From Promethearchaeati archaeon SRVP18_Atabeyarchaeia-1 (lineage in GTDB: Archaea > Asgardarchaeota > Atabeyarchaeia > Atabeyarchaeales > Atabeyarchaeaceae), in the NCBI GenBank assembly GCA_037308085.1, contig CP147779.1, forward strand, positions 672,001 through 736,000: DNA of 64,000 nucleotides. The letters run 5' to 3'. A program made the translations under genes and the position numbers. Shown here piece by piece: positions 4,495 through 56,521 of this stretch (position 1 is the first letter of the stretch; the number at the start of each line of letters is the position of its first letter). The notes beneath the pieces were generated by a model, which worked only from the letters and a program-made list of their open reading frames with translations, had not been told where the DNA came from and made no database searches.

Positions 4495-5325
4495 CTAGAA
4501 GTAGTCTGAGATCTCCTCTTCTTCATTCCTTTGAGTTTTGCGAAGTACCTCGGAGCATTTCCTGGGATTTAATCGCTTATATTCTAGATTAAGCAATGCT
4601 ATGCTTTTCTGGGTTCCCTTAGCCATGCTCTCTGCTATCAGTATCCCCCTTGCACTTGGGTCTCCTTTTCTAATGGTCTCCACGTATCTTGATAATTGCA
4701 GTGCAGCTTCTTTTGTTGCTTTTCCTCTCTTGATCTCGATAATTGTGTAGTTCCCGTTCCTGTCCTTTCCGAATATATCTGCGAAGCCAGTGGGCATTTC
4801 CTTCTCTGATGTTATGGGGACGAAGCCTTCCTCAATCAAACTGGGATCACAGAGGATCGCCTTCTTCATTTCCAACTCAGAGCCGTGCATGAGTATCTCG
4901 CTTTCGTCGGACAGTCCTAACACGCATACCAAGTAGAGTTTTGAAAAGGTGATCTTGACAGATTCCAGAGGCCTCATTCTTACAGCTGTAACCTCTAACC
5001 TGTTGTCTGAGTGTTGCTCAACTCGGAACCTGCATCCTGTTGGTTGCCAGTTCACGGGTCGATATCCGTGGCTACGGTGTATTATGAGGGCCTTGTCTGC
5101 GGTTATCAGTACGACCCTCTCACCCGCTCCCAGTGCTGAAGAGGCACGACCCTTGTAGAGTATCTCGCATAGCCCTATTATTATTACGGCTTTCGCCTTC
5201 CTTAAAGCATCTTGAACTAGGTTCTTTGCGTAATCAACGGAGGGATTCGCACTTATCTCAACAGGTCTTTTTGAATTCAAGCGATCAGATACACCTTCCT
5301 TTGATCGAAAAGGATCTTTCGGCAT
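4495..5325 (-). CDS. nucS: Mismatch-specific endonuclease NucS/EndoMS
   Basis: YKGRASS, RPVNWQP, nuclease motif ADIFGKD...IIEIKR...QLSRY; start uncertain. Confidence 0.92.
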   Translation of the reverse strand: MPKDPFRSKEGVSDRLNSKRPVEISANPSVDYAKNLVQDALRKAKAVIIIGLCEILYKGRASSALGAGERVVLITADKALIIHRSHGYRPVNWQPTGCRFRVEQHSDNRLEVTAVRMRPLESVKITFSKLYLVCVLGLSDESEILMHGSELEMKKAILCDPSLIEEGFVPITSEKEMPTGFADIFGKDRNGNYTIIEIKRGKATKEAALQLSRYVETIRKGDPSARGILIAESMAKGTQKSIALLNLEYKRLNPRKCSEVLRKTQRNEEEEISDYF

Positions 5326-5434
5326 GCGGCAAGACCATGGAGATACGAGAACAGGCTTCAATGGTTTCTGTGCTTATCCGTAATCAATACTTGGAGACTG
5401 GTCAGCGACAGGATGCGTAACACGTCTCGATATC

Positions 5435-46851: not shown

Positions 46852-49800
46852 TTACTCCTTGTCCCTGTCTTCTTCGAGAGTTAGAAGCTGCTGTTGTGAT
46901 TCCTTCGGTCTCCCCGATTTCAGGTTGCTCCATTCTGATTCTTCAAGCGTCACCCCAACTTGCTCGTAGATGCTCTTGGCGATCTCGCGTCCGATAGTCG
47001 GTATTGAGAGAAGCTGGGAAGGCTTTGAATTCCTTAGGTCACCAACAGTCTTGAAACCGGCGTTGAACAGCATTCTCGCTCTCACCCTGCCTATCCCCTT
47101 CAAGTTCACGAGCTCAAGCAGTTCCTCCTTTACTCCTTCCACGATACGTCTTCTCAGATTCATCGCAAGCGGTAACACATCCTTCCTGCCTAGGAGTTTT
47201 GCGATCTCATAGGTTGAGTAGAGAAGCCAATCCGCTGATTCCACATATCTGAAAATATCTCCTGAGCCAACATCGAAGTTCTCGATGATGCCCTCTTCAG
47301 GGGACTCCTCCATCCATGACAATAGTAACCGAGTCGTCTTGACTTCCGAGAGGAACTGTTCATACTCCACCGGATTGCTCCAAGGATCAGGGACATCCAC
47401 AAGGAATTCGCTGACCGACTCATCCACGAAGGACTCCATCTCCTTGTAGTCCTTCCTTCTCAGGAAAATTGGCTCCATGTCAGGAGTGTGACACATCATG
47501 TGAATCACGCCGATTGCCGTCTTGATCCTGCTACTCTGTATGCTATCTCTAATGATCACAGCCGACTTCGGATCGATGTACAGTTCAGACACCCTGCTCC
47601 CAAAGGGGGTTGCCGCTAATCTTCTTCCCCTCGACTCCTTGAGCATGTTCTCGGAAACCAGAAACTCCAGGACAGTCTCAATCACACCTTCGATGTCCTT
47701 AGGATCATATTGATGACCATAGAAGGTCCTGCCGATGAAACTCAGGATTTCCTCTTGGCTGTTTGCCAGACCCATAGCTACAGACGAAAGAATGTGCGAC
47801 CTGAGGACCGACTCCTTACCAAGCTTCGACCATATCTTCTCAGGCTCCCCGTAAACGTACGTTTCAAGCAGAGTCGCCCGCTCCTCATGCCCGCGCGCAA
47901 CCAGAACAGCCTCACCAATCCTGTCATACTTCGGCCTACCCGCCCTCCCAGCCATCTGCTTATACTCCAAGACCGGGATCGGGTAATACCCAAGACCAGT
48001 CTCATACCTCCTATAATTATCAATTATCACCATTCTAGCAGGAAGATTAACGCCGGCAGAGTTGTGGACTATGAAGCCATTTGCCACAAACATATGATCG
48101 TTTTCGGGTGTGTCTGGCAAAGCCACATCATAAACGTATGAATCTTGCTTGCTATTGCCTATTCTCTTGATGAAATCCCAATAAATATCTCCTTGAAAGT
48201 CATTTGCACGCCATGTTCCACGTATTCTTTGCTCCAATCTGGTTCCACATTGTGGACAAGTTTCAGGCTTGAAGAACTCATCGATATCTCTATTCTGAGC
48301 GATATAGTTCGAGAAAATCCATTTTCCGATCGGATTAAGGCTCCAGAACCATTCGTTCTTGTCGATTGTGCCGATTCTTCTCTTACTAATTAGATGGTAA
48401 TGTTGATTGAGTCTTGTTTCGTTTTTCCTAGGTTCTCTCCCAAGAATATTTCTTATTTCTCTTGATCCTAGTTCTCCTCTTTCGCCCAAGAGTTTGATAA
48501 CCAAGAGTTTCGTTTTACCCCATTGTTTTTGGACTTTGGTTCTCCCAGTGAAAAGCGATCTGTGTATCTTGTAGCCGCACTCCCTGCAAGATACGTATAG
48601 AAGGTTAGCCTCTATTCTTGATACTAATGAGTCGATTTCTCTCTGCTTGGCTGCAACATGGAACCCGACATTTCTTCCAAAATCCACAATACAGCGCCCG
48701 TCAGCAATTATCAATTCATAACTTGGCTTGGTCGAGTATTCTTTCCCTGCGGTTTTGATTACTCTCCCTCTTCTTTTCCTGATCCAAGTGACTATCCCGA
48801 ATCTTAGAAGCAGTTTTTGAACTTGGTCAATAAGCTTTCTGGAGGTGTTAGCAAATCCTACGTTTCTTCCCTTATTGACATATCCGTCGCTATCAAACAA
48901 CCCCTGCAGTAAGCTACCTATGTTTCTCTTGCTCATTGACATGAGCTCATTGTTGATGTACTTGTGTGAGCCTACTTCTACGCCGCATCGGACTAAGAAC
49001 TCTCTGAACCACTTGTTCTTGCCGAGTATGAGTTGAGGAGTTCCGTAGAAATTCACTGTTCTTCTACAACTAATTCCGAGTCTTGAACAAGTTTCTTCGA
49101 CATAAGGAAAGATCTCGGTCTTCGTGCCGACTATAGATGGGGTGCCCTTATAGTGAACCACCCCTCTCCATGTTTCAGCGCCTGAGTAACCATCTCCCAA
49201 CATTACGCCAAGGAAATATGATAATTCAGAGGAAAAGGCTAGGTCAGGGGATTCGGATCGATTATCAATAACGAAGTCGCTGATTGATGGTTGGCTAACT
49301 CTCTCTGTTTCCAAGTTTCGTACCGTAGCTATCTTGTCGGTCTCTCTTACTTCATTGGCAGGAATAACTAGTGGTCTAGTTCCACGCTTGATTAGGATCC
49401 TATGATTAGGGGTGACCTTGATAGAGCGACCTGACACTGATGATATCTCAACTAGAGGAGATGCAGAAGGGAGTCTGCTGATTTGCGAGGCTCTCACTTC
49501 GACTAGCTTGGTTCCGTTCAAGGCGTATAGGGGGTCGGAGGCGCGTAGTTCTGAGACCTCTGTTTCAGCCATTCCGTGCCATATCTTGGTGTCAGGTGAA
49601 AGGCAGAGTGTTGGGGTTGCGCATATGATCTTGACCTTGTTTTCCCTGAAGGCGGCCTCTATGATTCTCCGTTCTTGATACCTTAGGCCTGCGTGGTGGA
49701 ATGCAACGTTCCTTGATGTGAGCTCTGAGAGCATCTCAGTGACCTTGGTGACCTCGCCTGTTCTCAGGATCGAGTTTGATACCTGTTTGAGTGCTCTCTT

Positions 49801-50631
49801 CTCGGGAAGCGATATGATCGGGGCGGTGTGTTTGGCTATTCTGGATGCAAGATTCACGGACTTCTTTCTCGTGTCGGTGAATATGAGCACTTGCCCTCCA
49901 TCTCTCACCGCCTTCAACGCCAAGTCTATCGCTGCTACTCCAATCGTGTTTCGGATCTGCCTCTTCTCGCCATCGCCGAAATAGATCGCCCCTGAATCAT
50001 ATACGCCCTCCCTGAGCTTCACAGGTCGCCACCCGCTTGTTACGAGATCGGCTTTGAGCCACTTCGCTATCTCGTCAGAGTTGCTTATTGTGGCGCTCAG
50101 CGCAAGGACCTGCGCTGATGGGTTCAGCTGCATAAGCCTTGCAAGAACAACCTCGAGTGTAGGCCCTCTCTCATTCTCATTAATCAGGTGAACCTCGTCT
50201 GCAACTATCGTCGTCAGGCTACCCATCCAGTCAGCATGGTGGCGAATCAGCGAATCAACCTTCTCCGTCGTGGACACCACGAGATCAAAGTTGCGCAACC
50301 ACTGGTCCGAGCTATCCAGATCGCCGGTGGACTGCACAACCCGGACACCGATCTTCTCGTACTTCTTGAACTCCCTGTTCTTCTCGTCTGCCAGAGCCTT
50401 GAGCGGAACGAGGTAGATGGCCTTACCACCCGACTCCAATATCGATTTGACCATGCACAATTCTGCGACAAGCGTCTTACCCGACGCCGTAGGAACCGCT
50501 AGAACAAGGTTCTTACCTTCAAGAACCCCTTTCCTGATCGCATCTTCCTGAGGCGGATAGAGGTCCACATAACCCTCCTTCTCCAAGATGGCTTTGACTG
50601 ACTCGGGTACTGCTAGCTCACTGATCTTCAA
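46852..50631 (-). CDS. hel308: Ski2-like helicase Hel308/Hjm containing one intein
   Basis: PTASGKT, DEVH, LSAT, FHHAGL, ATPTL|intein|SAGVNLP, QMAGRAGR, C-terminal HhH. Confidence 0.93.
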   Translation of the reverse strand: MKISELAVPESVKAILEKEGYVDLYPPQEDAIRKGVLEGKNLVLAVPTASGKTLVAELCMVKSILESGGKAIYLVPLKALADEKNREFKKYEKIGVRVVQSTGDLDSSDQWLRNFDLVVSTTEKVDSLIRHHADWMGSLTTIVADEVHLINENERGPTLEVVLARLMQLNPSAQVLALSATISNSDEIAKWLKADLVTSGWRPVKLREGVYDSGAIYFGDGEKRQIRNTIGVAAIDLALKAVRDGGQVLIFTDTRKKSVNLASRIAKHTAPIISLPEKRALKQVSNSILRTGEVTKVTEMLSELTSRNVAFHHAGLRYQERRIIEAAFRENKVKIICATPTLCLSPDTKIWHGMAETEVSELRASDPLYALNGTKLVEVRASQISRLPSASPLVEISSVSGRSIKVTPNHRILIKRGTRPLVIPANEVRETDKIATVRNLETERVSQPSISDFVIDNRSESPDLAFSSELSYFLGVMLGDGYSGAETWRGVVHYKGTPSIVGTKTEIFPYVEETCSRLGISCRRTVNFYGTPQLILGKNKWFREFLVRCGVEVGSHKYINNELMSMSKRNIGSLLQGLFDSDGYVNKGRNVGFANTSRKLIDQVQKLLLRFGIVTWIRKRRGRVIKTAGKEYSTKPSYELIIADGRCIVDFGRNVGFHVAAKQREIDSLVSRIEANLLYVSCRECGYKIHRSLFTGRTKVQKQWGKTKLLVIKLLGERGELGSREIRNILGREPRKNETRLNQHYHLISKRRIGTIDKNEWFWSLNPIGKWIFSNYIAQNRDIDEFFKPETCPQCGTRLEQRIRGTWRANDFQGDIYWDFIKRIGNSKQDSYVYDVALPDTPENDHMFVANGFIVHNSAGVNLPARMVIIDNYRRYETGLGYYPIPVLEYKQMAGRAGRPKYDRIGEAVLVARGHEERATLLETYVYGEPEKIWSKLGKESVLRSHILSSVAMGLANSQEEILSFIGRTFYGHQYDPKDIEGVIETVLEFLVSENMLKESRGRRLAATPFGSRVSELYIDPKSAVIIRDSIQSSRIKTAIGVIHMMCHTPDMEPIFLRRKDYKEMESFVDESVSEFLVDVPDPWSNPVEYEQFLSEVKTTRLLLSWMEESPEEGIIENFDVGSGDIFRYVESADWLLYSTYEIAKLLGRKDVLPLAMNLRRRIVEGVKEELLELVNLKGIGRVRARMLFNAGFKTVGDLRNSKPSQLLSIPTIGREIAKSIYEQVGVTLEESEWSNLKSGRPKESQQQLLTLEEDRDKE
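48061..49605 (-). mobile_element. Intein (515 aa) with LAGLIDADG homing endonuclease, in Hel308 motif V
   Basis: Starts CLSPDT, block B VTPNH, LGVMLGDG and LQGLFDSDG motifs, ends IVHN followed by S. Confidence 0.93.
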
Positions 50632-50675
50632 GAGTGTCGCTGACCTCTAACAAAACCTTCAGTGGCTCGGATTAC

Positions 50676-53600
50676 TCAGGCCTTCTTCACGATCCCCTGC
50701 CTTGGCTCAAAGAGCACGCCCTCCTTGACCAACTTATTGATGGCATCCAATGCAAACTGCTTCTCTATCCCCTGAGCCGCGGCCGCTGCAACGATCTTAT
50801 CCACTTGCACGAATCCCTCCTTCGCCCCCTCCCCCAACTCGCGAACCAAAGTGATTATAAGATCAAACCTCTCACGCTGCGACTTCGTCTTCCCCACCAT
50901 GATCGTGTCAATATCAGCCCGCATGGTCTCCCTATCTATCCCCACCATCTTCAGCGAAGTAGTCATAAGGCGGATCACAGCCTCAGCGTCATCCACAGTA
51001 ATCTCCCGCTTCAATGCCATCTTCGCCCTAGACTCAGCCAACCTAACAAGAGCCTCAAGCTGCCTAGCCGTAATCGGCACAGGAGACTCAGGGTTCTCAC
51101 CCATAGCACGAGTCTCCAAGTAGAACTCCTCTATCTTCTTGGCGGCCTCATCAGTCAGCACCGGAGGCACATTCTTCTTAGCATAACTAATATACTTCCT
51201 CAAAAGCAAAGGAGCAATAGGAGCCTCATTACCAGTCGCCTTCGACGAATGCAAAGAAATCACATGCTCCGCCATCTTCCTATCCCTCTCAGACTCAGGC
51301 TTATCCACCATCACGAAAATCAAGTCAAACCTAGAAAGAACCGTAACCGGCAAATTGATGTTCTCAGCAGGATTCTTAAAACTATTATACCTACCCAGCG
51401 CCGGATTCGCAGCCGCGAGAATAGCAGTCCGAGCATTAAGCGTCGCAACAATCCCCGCCTTAGCAATCGAAATAGTGTTATGAAGCACAAGCCCGTGACT
51501 GATAAAGCAGTGATCAGGCTCTACCGTTACATCGTAAACGTATGGGCAAGACCATTTTCCTGTGTTTCTTACCTCCTCATTCCTCCTAACGCGAAGCAGA
51601 CAAATATCGCTTTGGAGCAATGCGTCAATCGCATTGATCTCCGGTTCAATAGCTGCGAGAGTCTTGCGTGCTGATTCTGTGATTGCCTCAGCCAGTTTTT
51701 TGCGGTACTCCTGCGTGTACCCTTCGTGCTCTGCATGGTATATGCGGAACTCGGTGACCCCGATCTTTCGAGCGGCAGTCACCTGAGACCAGCGGAGGAT
51801 GTTTCTTGCACTCCTAACATCTTCCGGAGCGGGATCGAGCGATTCCTTGGTCTTCAGGTATGCCTCCCTGACCTCGCCTAAGCAGGACTCAAGTAATGTG
51901 CGCGTGATGCCGTGCCCTTTCTTGGCAGCAGTCGACAAGACACCTCGGTAGGGGCGACTCAACTCCTGATATAGCTTCTTCACCCGGTCGCCGACCCCTG
52001 GCGGAAAGACATCATGGTCATAGTTAGATGCCTCAGATCGGGCCACAAGCCTGGCTATCCTTTCCTTTCGAGCGTCCCAAGGTTCAATGATAGTTCTAAA
52101 GAAGAGCGGAAGACTACTGCCGCAGATGTATACTTTGAAAGAGTCGTTATGAATATCCCGAACAATTCGGCTCTGAATGCCTGCGCACAACAGCAGATCC
52201 TGATAATCGCAGGCAAGTCCATTCGAAGCTGTCCGATAACATATGCTATCAGTTTCGACACTTCCGTCTCCCAGAAAAGCGGATTGCAGAAAGTTCAAAA
52301 CAACTTGCCTCCCAGAGGTAAACAGCTGAGGGGGAAGTCTCTTGTCGCGGGAGAGAGCTAGAACTTCTCGGAAATTGGATCTAAGCAAATCGCGTATTTG
52401 TGCAGATATATAGCGGATCTCCCTCCTCTTTTCATCATATTCTGGAGGGTCTAATCCAAAGACTTGTTTCATCAGTGTAGTGATGTCGTCTAGGATCTCA
52501 GGTGACGTATTCGAGAAACCAAACTCTGCGGACGAGCCAAAGTGGCTGAACCCCTCCGTAACAAAGTATCCCAAGATACGGGCTAACTGAGGTATCATAC
52601 GCTCTGGCAGAAGAACTGGTTTTGCATTGAAATGGACAGAGTACGGAGCGGCAAGGACAGCCCCCGGATTATGCCCGCTTGGCATCAGACGAAAGGCAGG
52701 CACAAAATCCCCGACTTCGAGCTCCGCAGCCTGCACAGTATACGACTTGTAACCGTCATAGAGAAACATCGGATGCTCGGGTGTGACAACAACCTCACGC
52801 CCATTGCTGAACCTAATCCTACGGAAACGGTCAGGAGCTCGATGCCGACTCACACGGTCTATTCGGACAGACCGAACATTACGGAGGTCAGACGTAAGGA
52901 TCTCCACACCCCGAGATCGCACATCCAAGATCTCACAATTGACTCCTTTGACCACCTCGCCTCGGCTAGCCACAAAAAGTGAGTCAACCAACTCACCAAT
53001 CGGAGTACGTACGCCATTCGCAAGTGCCACCTCCACCACGCGGTGGTACGATTGTTGCTCCATCGCTTGATGTATTGCAACCCTGTCTTGCGGATTCATT
53101 TTGTCAAACTCGTCCACCGCGGCGATGCCCCGATCTGCGAGCACAAGCGCACCGGCTTCCAAGGTCATGTCCCCGGTGTCCGCATCGCGGAGGACCGCCG
53201 CCGTGAGGCCCGCTGCTGTGGAACCCTTCCCCGAGGTGTAAAGACCTCTGGGTGCCAGCCCCGCCGTATACATTAAGAGCTGGCTGTTATGTACTATGAG
53301 GTTCCCTTCAGCGAGGATGAAATGTCCGTTTGAGGTTCCGATGTCATATACAGTTGTTTGCTCGTTCAGAAGGTCAACTTTGGTGACTTGGTCCCAGAAG
53401 ATGTCGGATTCGGCTAGTGTTTCTAGCCAGTCAAGGCAAGGAGATGCGTCGCTATCGTTCTTATCCGGGTCTAATCGTGAGATCACATTTTGCAGGTAAA
53501 CTCGACCTACGTGCTGTCTCTTTTTCTTACCTCTCAGTTCCGCTATGAAGTTCCTAGTCCAGGAATCGCGCTTACTTGTCATTCCCAGTTCTCGTGCGGC

Positions 53601-55928
53601 GCGTACCAACATTGAGCCATAGTTTGGTACTATGTCACGGGACTGGTAGCGTTTCCGAGTGCGCATGCGCTTTACGATTGATTCCAGTTTGTCTTGCTTG
53701 TTGGTTGATACAAGTCTAACCTGTTTGTGGAATGTCAGGAGGTCGGTGCCCTGTATCCTCACATGGTAGTATATGTAACCTTTGTATGGTTCCTTAGTCA
53801 CAGTGGTCTTGAAGATGCTAGCAAAGATGCCCAATGTTGCCAGTAGATCGCTCAATTGGTACGCAAGGGTTCGGCTTTTCGTTGTGCATTGTACCGCCGA
53901 TCCCTTCATGTCAATCGTTCCGTCTCCGGAGAAACAACCAGAGAGTAGTGAAAGGCGCAGAGGGTAAGGTGCAGTGAAGAATTCAGTTGGAATCTGTTTA
54001 TTTTCTGCTCCCGTTCCGAATTTCCGTTCAAACCAGGTGGCTAAGCTTGACTGGCATAGCAGGATAGAATCGTCAGTCGCTGAGAATTTACCGAAGACTG
54101 TTTCAAGATCACTCTTTAGGGAGCTTCTGATCGAATCATTACAGGCGGAAAAACGCACCGTGGTTCCTTCTACGTTGCCTTCGGCGAGATACAAGCCGAC
54201 GATTCGGCCCAATGCTGGTCCGAGTTGCAGCCATCTTGGGAACCACGTGGTGTCTCTTTTTCTGCGGAGCCATGTGCCTTTCGGGATCGAAGCGTTTCCG
54301 TTGACGATTCCGCACATCGTGTTGGCTGATATATTGCATATGGTAGCCGCTGCTCTGGCACTAACGAGATTTGACTGAATGAGGACAAGTTGTGTGTTGA
54401 TTTCCTCAGCGCTTACCAAATCTGTTTCTGGGAACTCTTCGGCTAGATCTATGAAGGGTGATCCTTCCTCTACGTCAACCTGGCGCGCTACTGGAAGGTA
54501 TGTGCCTGGGCGGAGATCTTGACCAACGATCACCTGCAACTTGCCGTCAATAATCGTTGTAAAAGAGTGATCTGGGGTAGCTAGTACCGTTCGCCCTGAT
54601 CTGGTGTGAATGCGGATTAGTCGGTCGGTTCTGTGGCGGCTAACCTCACAGATGAGTGATGACCTAGTCTTCAGGGAGAGTGGATCCATTGTCTGAGTAA
54701 ATATGGTAGCTGGGTCTCCGAGTGGAAGGATCTCTGAATCTCCTCGAAAGACCATCTCATCTCGGTGTGCTGACATCAAGCCATCGACAAGAGATCCTAT
54801 TGACTCTCTATTCCATCGCAAGGTTGAACCGCATTCTCTTCCTACATAGACCTTTTCCGTACCGTGCACGCTCTTTGCAGTTCCTGGATCCCCTATGAGG
54901 AGTACGTTTATTTCTCCTCGGATCTTGACTCCGTCTGGGAGGGTTTTTGGTACTCCTCCGAATAGGGCGAGGGCTATGGCTTCTTTGACGTCTTCGAGGC
55001 CGTAGATGGATGGGGCGATTGATTTTATTATTTTCTGGTGGATCCACTCGTCTTTGGCGAGTTCGATTATGAAGCGTTCTTCTTCTGGTGTGATCTCGAC
55101 TTTCTCGCTTTCCTTGTCCATTGTGTCGACGTAGTTTGAGTCGATGTAGGTTCTGAAGGTGGTTAGGCGGCCTCGTTTCGGGGCGAAGTCCTGTAGGGAC
55201 ATTAGTGCTCCGGTTATTGCTACGCGGTCGCCGGGTCTTGCGATGTCGACGAGGTCGTCCTTTATGATGGCGTCTAGGGATCTTGGCATCTGTCCTGGGG
55301 GGAGTTCCTCTGGCATCTCCTGTATTCTTATTTTTTGCCAGTCTACGAACTTGGAGTCTTCGACTATTAGGTTGAAGGGTCCTTCTCGTTTGCATGCGGG
55401 GCAGGTGACGGGAGGCAGGTACCTTCCCTCAAACTGCTCGACGGTTATCTTGTTGCCGCAGCTGCACTCGAATAGGGCTACGAGGAGTTGGGGCTTGACT
55501 TCGCTAACTCTTGTGATGATGCCGTCAACCATGATTAGTTTGCCAATGTGGTTCGCCCGGATCATGCGAAGCTTGACTTTTCCGGTCGTTACGTTCCTGA
55601 ACCTTGCTTTGAATTCGTGTCCGGATTCGGTAATCTTGGTGACGTAGTCGCGGTCCTCGAGTTCGACTATGGTTTTGACTGAGTCGGAGGCTGCTTTGAC
55701 GCAGTCTTCAGGATCATCGATTATCTGCCTGGCAAGCTGAGGGTCGAAGTCGAGGAGCTCATTGTAATCAATTATGACTGATCTTTCCCCGGTTACTGGA
55801 AGCCTCTGGATCGTCTCACGGTATTTCAGTGACCCAGACTCGGTGCGGAATGACTTTAGGAAGTTCTGGAATCGCTGGAACAAGTCCGCTTGTTCATCAG
55901 TGATGTCTGCGGCACTCTCATTAGCCAT
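50676..55928 (-). CDS. mcm: MCM replicative helicase containing two inteins (about 696 aa after splicing)
   Basis: Zn finger, GDPGTAK|intein|SQLL, VDEFDKM, AMEQQ|intein|TISIAKAG, SRFD, ARQLE. Confidence 0.95.
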   Translation of the reverse strand: MANESAADITDEQADLFQRFQNFLKSFRTESGSLKYRETIQRLPVTGERSVIIDYNELLDFDPQLARQIIDDPEDCVKAASDSVKTIVELEDRDYVTKITESGHEFKARFRNVTTGKVKLRMIRANHIGKLIMVDGIITRVSEVKPQLLVALFECSCGNKITVEQFEGRYLPPVTCPACKREGPFNLIVEDSKFVDWQKIRIQEMPEELPPGQMPRSLDAIIKDDLVDIARPGDRVAITGALMSLQDFAPKRGRLTTFRTYIDSNYVDTMDKESEKVEITPEEERFIIELAKDEWIHQKIIKSIAPSIYGLEDVKEAIALALFGGVPKTLPDGVKIRGEINVLLIGDPGTAKSVHGTEKVYVGRECGSTLRWNRESIGSLVDGLMSAHRDEMVFRGDSEILPLGDPATIFTQTMDPLSLKTRSSLICEVSRHRTDRLIRIHTRSGRTVLATPDHSFTTIIDGKLQVIVGQDLRPGTYLPVARQVDVEEGSPFIDLAEEFPETDLVSAEEINTQLVLIQSNLVSARAAATICNISANTMCGIVNGNASIPKGTWLRRKRDTTWFPRWLQLGPALGRIVGLYLAEGNVEGTTVRFSACNDSIRSSLKSDLETVFGKFSATDDSILLCQSSLATWFERKFGTGAENKQIPTEFFTAPYPLRLSLLSGCFSGDGTIDMKGSAVQCTTKSRTLAYQLSDLLATLGIFASIFKTTVTKEPYKGYIYYHVRIQGTDLLTFHKQVRLVSTNKQDKLESIVKRMRTRKRYQSRDIVPNYGSMLVRAARELGMTSKRDSWTRNFIAELRGKKKRQHVGRVYLQNVISRLDPDKNDSDASPCLDWLETLAESDIFWDQVTKVDLLNEQTTVYDIGTSNGHFILAEGNLIVHNSQLLMYTAGLAPRGLYTSGKGSTAAGLTAAVLRDADTGDMTLEAGALVLADRGIAAVDEFDKMNPQDRVAIHQAMEQQSYHRVVEVALANGVRTPIGELVDSLFVASRGEVVKGVNCEILDVRSRGVEILTSDLRNVRSVRIDRVSRHRAPDRFRRIRFSNGREVVVTPEHPMFLYDGYKSYTVQAAELEVGDFVPAFRLMPSGHNPGAVLAAPYSVHFNAKPVLLPERMIPQLARILGYFVTEGFSHFGSSAEFGFSNTSPEILDDITTLMKQVFGLDPPEYDEKRREIRYISAQIRDLLRSNFREVLALSRDKRLPPQLFTSGRQVVLNFLQSAFLGDGSVETDSICYRTASNGLACDYQDLLLCAGIQSRIVRDIHNDSFKVYICGSSLPLFFRTIIEPWDARKERIARLVARSEASNYDHDVFPPGVGDRVKKLYQELSRPYRGVLSTAAKKGHGITRTLLESCLGEVREAYLKTKESLDPAPEDVRSARNILRWSQVTAARKIGVTEFRIYHAEHEGYTQEYRKKLAEAITESARKTLAAIEPEINAIDALLQSDICLLRVRRNEEVRNTGKWSCPYVYDVTVEPDHCFISHGLVLHNTISIAKAGIVATLNARTAILAAANPALGRYNSFKNPAENINLPVTVLSRFDLIFVMVDKPESERDRKMAEHVISLHSSKATGNEAPIAPLLLRKYISYAKKNVPPVLTDEAAKKIEEFYLETRAMGENPESPVPITARQLEALVRLAESRAKMALKREITVDDAEAVIRLMTTSLKMVGIDRETMRADIDTIMVGKTKSQRERFDLIITLVRELGEGAKEGFVQVDKIVAAAAAQGIEKQFALDAINKLVKEGVLFEPRQGIVKKA
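51477..53051 (-). mobile_element. MCM intein 2 (525 aa, Ser-initiated, LAGLIDADG), after AMEQQ
   Basis: SYHRV..., VTPEHP, LGYFVTEG, FLQSAFLGDG, ends VLHN followed by T. Confidence 0.92.
53286..54872 (-). mobile_element. MCM intein 1 (529 aa, Ser-initiated, LAGLIDADG), in Walker A
   Basis: SVHGTEK..., ATPDHS, VGLYLAEG, LLSGCFSGDG, ends IVHN followed by S. Confidence 0.92.
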
Positions 55929-55939
55929 TACTGGTCACC

Positions 55940-56521
55940 TTACCTTTGGAGTATTCCTTTCTCCCAGCCCCTCAGCAACTTGGCCAAGCGCTGGTAGAGC
56001 CACGCTTCCTCACCTGTCATCAGGTTTGAGGTTCCAAGTGCATCGCCGCCTCGCAACGATATTTTTACAATCTTGGATATGCGGACGGATACGAGATCCC
56101 TTAGAAGCGTTTCAAACTGAGCAAGTCTCCTGACGCTATCGAGGTCGCGAGCAGCGTTACTGACTTTCTCCTGGAAGGATTTTGCGAGTTCCTTAGCAAG
56201 CACGTAGAAGTCTTCGGGTAGTTTCTGAAGTGGGGTCTCCAGTTGTTCCTTCCAGAGGATGTTTTCAAAGTCCTTGTAAGCTAGTTTCTGCTCTTCCCTC
56301 ATCACTCCTGCATTTGCTTTGGCGAGAGCCTCTGCCGCCCAAAGTGGGAGAGTGACGTCTTGGCCTTTTGCGACTGAGGCCAGATCCTTTCCCGCAATCA
56401 CTAGGTCTTCCAGAGGTTTCGTTATGGTCAGTTTTACCTGCTTGTTATTTCTCTCAAATTCGTAAGATTCTGGGTTGAACTCAAGATCGTCCACGATTAG
56501 CACCGATCTTCTATTAGACAA
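55940..56521 (-). CDS. GINS complex subunit, Gins23 (Psf2/Psf3-like)
   Basis: LPLWAAEAL, LQKLPEDFY, RISKIVK, NLMTGEE; lies directly upstream of mcm. Confidence 0.85.
   Translation of the reverse strand: MSNRRSVLIVDDLEFNPESYEFERNNKQVKLTITKPLEDLVIAGKDLASVAKGQDVTLPLWAAEALAKANAGVMREEQKLAYKDFENILWKEQLETPLQKLPEDFYVLAKELAKSFQEKVSNAARDLDSVRRLAQFETLLRDLVSVRISKIVKISLRGGDALGTSNLMTGEEAWLYQRLAKLLRGWEKGILQR

Follow-up and report, generated by a model that had tools for sequence, protein, structure and literature searches.

The 64,000-nucleotide stretch of Promethearchaeati archaeon SRVP18_Atabeyarchaeia-1 DNA analysed here (hereafter the window) corresponds to G000:C1:672001-736000, where G000 denotes the genome that holds it, a single contig of 2.81 Mb. 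It carries an mcm gene (50676-55928, minus strand, 1750 codons plus stop), which encodes an MCM helicase with two LAGLIDADG inteins. In this gene and in several others, almost all silent codon positions are occupied by A or C before the inteins and by G or T after them, far beyond chance, which confirms what a preliminary description of the window had noticed in mcm. The mirror-image skew of intein flanks is real, recurs across lineages, is restricted to some of them and is not peculiar to mcm. It is apparently undescribed, though akin to known phenomena, namely compositional asymmetry between strands, co-conversion tracts and biased gene conversion. On balance, recombinational break repair at the intein homing sites has probably left it as a strand-asymmetric footprint at the DNA level.

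The layout of mcm follows from its open reading frame (ORF), its translation and matches to Pfam (MCM_N, MCM_OB, MCM with the P-loop domain in three pieces, MCM_lid, two Intein_splicing and two LAGLIDADG_3). Intein 1 (529 residues, codons 353-881, 53286-54872, minus strand like all parts of the gene) follows GDPGTAK in the Walker A motif, and intein 2 (525 residues, codons 960-1484, 51477-53051) precedes TISIAKAG; between them lies an extein of 78 codons (53052-53285). The first 80 codons of the gene (55689-55928), the outer end of the right arm, are unskewed (A/C:G/T 21:19 and 24:16). The A/C run of the N-extein comprises codons 81-352 (54873-55688), where 82% of third positions are A/C (A.35, C.47, G.15, T.03). 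Forty-codon blocks from codon 80 to codon 352 contain 30-37 A/C endings each, and none of the 21 leucine codons of the run is TTR. Thirty-five of the 40 codons immediately before intein 1 (codons 313-352) end in A/C, the others being codons 335, 346, 347, 350 and 352; the run stops about seven codons ahead of the intein. The G/T run of the C-extein (codons 1485-1750, 50679-51476; G.50, T.36, C.11, A.04) begins at the +1 codon and weakens toward the stop codon, with 38, 36, 37, 36, 33 and 31 G/T endings in its successive 40-codon blocks. Of its first 39 codons (1485-1523), 37 end in G/T, with only codons 1504 and 1523 ending in A/C, so both hand counts made earlier are exact.

The switch coincides with the exact codon of the junction between intein 2 and the C-extein. 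In terms of third-position skew (K-M, negative for an excess of A/C-ending and positive for an excess of G/T-ending codons), both inteins are near neutral (-0.25 and +0.12, respectively); they and the extein between them are composed of roughly equal numbers of A/C- and G/T-ending codons. The inter-intein extein is mixed (53% G/T), as had been described and as expected if two opposite arms overlap there. Over the first 200 codons of the C-extein G/T endings reach 91%, compared with 56-61% in intein-free orthologues, and the G+C content of third positions (GC3) in the mcm arms is 0.61 against 0.49-0.51 in those orthologues, a rise of about 0.10. None of 11,702 non-overlapping 60-codon segments from intein-free genes of G000 reaches the downstream mcm value of +0.83, and 0.18% of them reach the upstream value of -0.73.

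Read along the plus strand, the DNA is A/C-rich to the left of the inteins and G/T-rich to the right, as first reported (-90/100 at 50715-51590, +80/100 at 54777-55544). Contigs from another study's independent wetland metagenomes contain the identical sequence, junctions included, so the mcm pattern is not an assembly artefact; matches to the G000 mcm sequence occur in freshwater-sediment and wetland metagenomes. The likeness to an origin-type switch that had been drawn holds in one respect, as the outward-running strand is G/T-rich on both sides. It fails in others: the arms are local, and the gene, at 0.72 Mb, does not sit at an extreme of cumulative skew (about 0.21, 1.37 and 2.14-2.16 Mb in G000). 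The chromosomal origin or terminus was rejected as the cause on this ground and because the skew does not persist along the replichore.

Two long shadow ORFs, both present where they had been located, are by-products of the skew: an antisense ORF of 346 codons (50634-51674, plus strand), opposite sense codons with few A/C at third positions, and an ORF of 195 codons on the same strand as mcm and out of frame with it (54808-55395, minus strand), where sense third positions contain few T. They stay open because stop codons start with T, and T is lacking at position 1 of the shadow-frame codons. Neither matches a Pfam family and the mechanical explanation suffices, so they were rejected as genes. 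The idea that the A/C-rich arm pairs with the G/T-rich one as RNA or DNA was likewise discarded, as 50600-55950 contains no inverted repeats longer than 15 nucleotides.

The skew is tied to inteins throughout the genome. G000 has 15 inteins in 13 genes, whose junctions were set from hidden Markov model coordinates and orthologue alignments, and 60 codons were taken on each side. Mean K-M is -0.30 upstream, -0.05 in the interior and +0.31 downstream, and the flanks differ from the 11,702 null segments with Mann-Whitney p = 2e-4 upstream and 1e-5 downstream. Besides mcm, the pattern is strong in RNR, AtpA, Hel308, RpoA' and UvrB and weaker in PolB and PolD-DP2; NrdD and three other intein genes have no skew. 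The other skewed genes, like both mcm inteins, have LAGLIDADG_3 and Intein_splicing matches. The inteins separate the paired arms by 1.5-3.6 kb, and the arms are gone within 0.3-1.2 kb, a decay with distance whose measurement had been proposed. Of the two strands, the one leaving the intein in the 5'->3' direction is G/T-rich in every case. Being its own reverse complement, the pattern looks the same for genes on either chromosome strand. A frame-free scan of G000 finds about 45 strongly skewed tracts with period 3.

Comparison of alleles with and without inteins points the same way. G001, of the same genus as G000, and G002, of the same family, do not have most of the G000 inteins. In family-level pairs for seven genes, mean upstream and downstream K-M is -0.32/+0.40 for 10 intein-bearing alleles and -0.05/0.00 for 11 intein-free ones (p = 0.0014), so that alleles without the intein do not flip; intein-free MCMs agree with this, and the intein-free mcm of G002 has only a mild G/T excess. 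In RNR, the N-terminal A/C run accompanies intein A: G000 has both and G002 neither. The gene next downstream of mcm in the window, which encodes a Hel308-type helicase by its Pfam matches (46852-50631, minus strand), is a further example. It contains its own LAGLIDADG intein (48061-49605), preceded by an A/C run (about 49606-49914, K-M -0.40) and followed by a G/T run (about 47752-48060, +0.70), while its intein-free orthologues in both sister genomes show no flip, with values of -0.13 to -0.27 on both sides. A milder G/T excess in the opening 180 codons of hel308 (50092-50631) continues the left arm of mcm.

Independent lineages repeat the pattern. Among 30 MCM loci from 40 phylum-level relatives, G/T runs after the mcm intein site occur only in alleles that carry an intein or in loci truncated by the contig end, which may or may not have one (L026 and L028). 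Among 72 MCM loci from all archaea, seven have a run of at least +0.7, each of them beside an intein, which in five loci occupies the mcm intein site and in two lies 22 codons upstream of it; the source is in every case a Baldr-, Hermod- or 'Promethearchaeota' metagenome-assembled genome. Eight loci (L217, L218, L164, L160, L161, L169, L094 and L096) are A/C up to the first intein and G/T after the last, and they span GC3 values from 0.23 to 0.74. One complete MCM profile, scored per 30 codons, reads -30 -30 -30 -30, then values near 0 through the inteins, then +22 +30 +30. Of the 65 C-junctions of inteins of all kinds in the relatives, seven are at or above +0.5 and none at or below -0.5, and no intein interior reaches such values.

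Several features indicate that the skew is a property of DNA strands and not of codons. The outward-running strand has the same composition in both arms (G.47-.50, T.35-.36, C.11-.15, A.03-.04). Each of the eight four-fold boxes uses A- and C-ending codons (or G- and T-ending ones) about equally, and ATA makes up 41 of 92 isoleucine codons in the purest A/C runs. The synonymous first position of leucine obeys the rule as well, with TTR accounting for none of 125 leucine codons in A/C runs, although TTA ends in A. The skew also leaks out of genes: the RNR arm runs on into a convergent gene on the opposite strand, itself one of the most A/C-skewed in G000, and the plus-strand skew of divergently oriented neighbours is correlated genome-wide (r = 0.21, p = 1e-4). 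Together, the strand-complementary arms, the equal use of codon endings, the avoidance of TTA and the leakage point to a DNA-level process, not to codon optimisation, and the sign is that expected if newly made strands extend outward from a break. The four comparisons of non-synonymous positions all lean in the predicted direction, by 1-5%, which is not significant. Substitutions were also counted after polarisation with the two sister genomes, as had been proposed; the silent sites are saturated, so these counts mirror composition only.

At a break, 5'->3' resection leaves two 3' tails, each on the strand directed toward the break; the opposite strands, directed outward, would be rebuilt after resection. 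At an intein site, the retained tails would belong to the coding strand on the upstream side and to the template strand on the downstream side, which are the A/C-rich strands. Within the intein both strands would be copied anew from the donor, and a neutral interior with a sharp edge would follow. The arm length of 0.3-1.2 kb fits the scale of resection and co-conversion tracts. Cutting by the endonuclease is the best-supported reading for the intein sites, though it is not proven. Strand-coordinated mutation clusters on resected DNA, caused by deamination of the single strands, also switch the affected strand in mirror image at a break, but their predicted sign is opposite to the one observed. 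C->T and A->G changes by deamination in the 3' tails would enrich the inward strands in G/T; the tails are A/C-rich, and deamination was therefore rejected.

Two chemistries could produce the observed sign. In one, mismatches in heteroduplex between diverged alleles would be corrected selectively by type: where the invading tail has G or T, the donor base would take its place, whereas A or C would be retained, so that all silent differences would end up as A/C on that strand. Change would be limited to sites at which the alleles differ, i.e. synonymous ones, and conserved non-synonymous sites would remain untouched; the barely shifted non-synonymous positions are what is expected if only allele-polymorphic sites are converted. 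Three or four such events with diverged partners would be enough for a purity above 90%. In the other, a gap-filling polymerase might misinsert G.T pairs over very many events. The preliminary description had proposed a footprint of repeated cutting; the tie to inteins and the strand sign stand with this proposal, while a few recombination events with biased mismatch correction fit equally well. Its alternative of break-initiated replication finds no support in arms that fade so close to the intein. The process is confined to certain lineages of Asgard archaea (Atabey-, Baldr-, Hermod- and some Loki-like ones) and is not an automatic companion of an intein.

The candidate enzyme for selective correction is EndoMS/NucS. 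Thermococcus EndoMS prefers G/T, G/G and T/T mismatches and hardly cuts A/C, A/A and C/C (PMC4838380), and in a mouse single-strand annealing assay the geometry of the break directs which strand's mismatch is corrected (PMC9001825). Together, these two properties predict both the sign of the skew and its restriction to polymorphic sites. However, neither study deals with homing sites, Asgard archaea or evolutionary time, and the connection is inferred here. A NucS/EndoMS homologue is encoded in the window (4495-5361, minus strand, a 288-residue ORF with 88.7 bits to NucS_C), and every family with flips has a NucS homologue. It is possible, though rather doubtful, that several Asgard lineages have an as yet undescribed, strand-asymmetric kind of biased gene conversion: in recombination that starts at a fixed break, EndoMS/NucS would plausibly correct G/T-type mismatches at the expense of the invading 3' tail and spare A/C-type ones, and a few events would turn hundreds of silent sites into mirror-image A/C and G/T runs. 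The only MutS match in G000 is a weak one to MutS_V (47 bits, G000:289869-290294).

A number of observations weigh against break repair at homing sites as the source of the skew. A run is found at seven of 52 junctions in families that have NucS and at none of 13 where NucS was not found, a difference that is not significant, and NucS presence is clearly not sufficient. Most inteins are without skew, including those of other NucS-bearing lineages, and about 35 intein-bearing MCM alleles (Heimdall-, Bathy-, Thermoproteota, Nitrososphaerota, Micr- and Nanoarchaeota) have none; the skew is thus not the general record of homing that had been suggested. The RpoA' intein was inherited from a common ancestor by G000 and G001 (86% identity), and only G000 has the flip, so carrying the intein is not sufficient either. 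In one Baldrarchaeial genome, a mini-intein of 170 residues without an endonuclease (L096, G019:C1:25013-25522) keeps its G/T run (+0.73); a congener has a 518-residue intein at the same MCM site with a run of +0.83 (L094, G029:C9:59738-61291). More broadly, in a comparison with mini-inteins, which had been put forward as a check, about one of 14 mini-inteins and seven of 51 large inteins carry a run with no clear relation to size, and the score of the LAGLIDADG domain bears no clear relation to the strength of the skew. Contigs of four wetland sequencing runs reproduced only the intein-bearing G000 mcm sequence and no intein-free allele. Contig joints that skip 1.7-3.6 kb were considered as such alleles and rejected: their matching sides are 26-35 nucleotides long with 85% likeness, and their high foreign depth, together with these sides, assigns them to mcm genes of other organisms.

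Further counterexamples are two flips in genes without inteins. EF-2 (G000:C1:103465-105669, L005) switches from near-100% A/C to G/T at codon ~591, and AtpB (G000:C1:605055-606536, L001) does so at codons 319-356. That such flips exist in intein-free genes had been named as a possible difficulty, and it is partly borne out: these two are strong, but they are rare, two among about 2,500 intein-free genes against at least eight of the 13 intein genes. Their positions are conserved in G000, G001 and G002, and that of AtpB also in G037 and G028, which represent a second family. Their arms are longer (2-4 kb) and cross intergenic regions with 67-68% G/T, and the EF-2 arm enters the oppositely oriented hypF. 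A lost intein was sought at both sites. No EF-2 of 400 Asgard genomes has an insertion in the C-terminal third, and the only AtpB intein found (G031:C88:30024-33188, L156) sits at residue ~270, not at 319-356, and has no skew in its flanks; a ghost intein was rejected for both genes.

A DNA-level strand-asymmetric process that needs no homing endonuclease, such as a lineage-specific bias tied to single-strandedness or to repair synthesis at large (linked to transcription in highly expressed genes) or to recombination hot spots, with inteins only creating or marking the boundaries, would accommodate these genes. EF-2, AtpB, a RuBisCO-like gene and some ribosomal protein genes have near-pure A/C runs on the coding strand, whichever chromosome strand they occupy. 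The EF-2 and AtpB flips keep their positions in three to five intein-free genomes; their four-fold sites are saturated for A<->C change and still are A/C, so the pressure must be continuous; the EF-2 arm passes through intergenic DNA (67% G/T) into hypF; and strand skew is regionally correlated across the genome. Against this stand the intein-free alleles of the seven intein genes, which within the same family show no flip at all, so that at these loci the intein itself is needed. Neither a transcription-based nor a replication-based process predicts a switch at the junction codon or a neutral intein interior. Such an explanation of the intein sites is accordingly judged rather unlikely, and the same bias may also be active in highly expressed genes or other hot spots.

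Selection on translation speed was weighed next to it: A/C-ending codons would be 'fast' Watson-Crick codons and G/T-ending ones 'slow' wobble codons, with the change of pace aiding co-translational folding or splicing of the intein. The rule does follow the reading frame, in that it concerns third positions, and the G/T run starts at the +1 codon and persists beside the endonuclease-free mini-intein. Genes that are probably highly expressed have A/C-ending codons in the same lineages, and the independence from genomic GC3 is what universal wobble rules would allow. Yet selection on a single mRNA does not predict arms of strand-complementary composition or skew that spreads into opposite-orientation neighbours and intergenic DNA. 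No amino acid has a single preferred codon of the kind expected from tRNA adaptation, ATA is frequent, TTA is shunned despite its final A, a 'fast' stretch of 270 codons ahead of an intein has no obvious use, about 88% of inteins are without skew, and the orthologous RpoA' intein allele does not flip although its flanks are 95-98% identical in protein sequence. All this makes translational selection improbable. Still less credit is due to a mosaic origin, in which the extein flanks would have been co-converted with the inteins from a donor mcm that already had this composition. Flank co-conversion with homing elements is well documented (PMC3192709, PMC10643990), and the G000 C-extein is slightly over-diverged (protein identity of 0.83-0.84 compared with an expected 0.88). 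However, the exteins share 76-82% identity with those of the sister genomes and only 42-61% with any other MCM, whether skewed or not; invoking a donor would just relocate the question, since no ordinary genome ends 90-95% of its codons in G/T or in A/C; and the same pattern surrounds eight different host genes. A foreign source for the flanks is thus highly improbable.

Break repair at homing sites has a close parallel in homing co-conversion and mutagenic repair tracts (PMC3192709, 10.1101/092585, PMC10643990). For the plant cox1 intron, yeast mitochondrial introns and haloarchaeal MCM inteins, these reports describe donor-derived sequence or a raised density of single-nucleotide polymorphisms (SNPs); as in Atabeyarchaeia, silent sites in the flanks are altered, the effect decays with distance and empty alleles are free of it. 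Unlike the change seen here, which is directional, mirror-symmetric and almost complete, theirs is not said to involve any compositional or strand skew. In the literature searched (homing co-conversion, yeast mitochondrial SNPs and haloarchaeal MCM inteins), no report of a mirror-image compositional skew around inteins was found, and the genome papers on Atabeyarchaeia mention neither inteins nor such a skew. GC-biased gene conversion resembles the process envisaged in that a repair bias acts like selection on silent sites near recurrent breaks and GC3 is raised, here by the amount given above. It differs in favouring G+C on both strands; around inteins one strand is enriched in G+T and its complement in A+C, with a reversal of sign across the break. 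The skew at replication origins, where the leading strand is G/T-rich and the switch lies at oriC, shares the switch of sign at a point and the G/T-rich outward 5'->3' strand on both sides, whereas the intein arms fade over a short distance, have near-saturated silent sites and occur at many sites per genome.

The search for skewed genes brought up further observations. The most A/C-skewed gene of G000 (-0.76) resembles the RuBisCO large subunit (L139:8471-9665, minus strand, equal to G000:2712470-2713664), a call made by eye from conserved motifs; it is apparently split by a frameshift into ORFs of 296 and 82 residues. Some ribosomal protein genes are also A/C-skewed on the coding strand. Two skewed genes are mobile-element-like (loci L003 and L039): one for an 803-residue HTH_3 protein (G000:C1:1066991-1069402, minus strand) beside the ribosomal protein S12 gene, the other for a 349-residue IscB-like nuclease with RRXRR and HNH matches (G000:C1:817264-818313, plus strand). 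A gene for a 1253-residue HerA/DUF87-like ATPase (L001:3736-7497, minus strand, equal to G000:606735-610496) lies between atpA and atpB and breaks the usual order of the A-ATPase operon. Most Asgard relatives have two EF-2 paralogues, and several EF-2 matches (e.g. in G038:C38, G029:C9, G014:C1, G003:C1 and G020:C200) contain a single in-frame TAA or TAG, possibly reflecting recoding, frameshifts or assembly errors.

The rRNA region is unusual as well. The 16S rRNA gene (L137:5465-7890, equal to G000:448464-450889) measures 2426 nucleotides against 1478 in the model, with an insertion of about 950 nucleotides that overlaps an ORF of 251 residues. The spacer between the 16S and 23S rRNA genes is 4 kb long and contains ORFs, one of them with a LAGLIDADG match (451720-451962); L137:11868-13001 (G000:454867 onwards) belongs to the same region. 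The flanking genes have a 'divergent' skew, A/C on the left (444021-446177) and G/T on the right (453131-454036).

The runs have practical consequences. They create long false ORFs and distort predictions of expression and horizontal transfer that are based on codon usage, and nucleotide phylogenies built on Asgard markers (mcm, EF-2, atpA/B, rpoA and polB) could be misled by them. If they turned out to be translational, they would be the first evidence of hosts tuning codon speed around inteins. If they are repair footprints, they would provide a readout, obtained from sequence alone, of the activity, tract length and polarity of intein homing in uncultured organisms, and would record which inteins, and which intein-free hot spots (EF-2 codon ~591, AtpB codon ~320), take part, or once took part, in recombination. 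A new repair bias is a realistic possibility as the source of the skew. Such a bias would have fixed more than 90% of silent sites in core replication, transcription and energy genes in the closest archaeal relatives of eukaryotes, and would be a process able to override codon usage in core genes.

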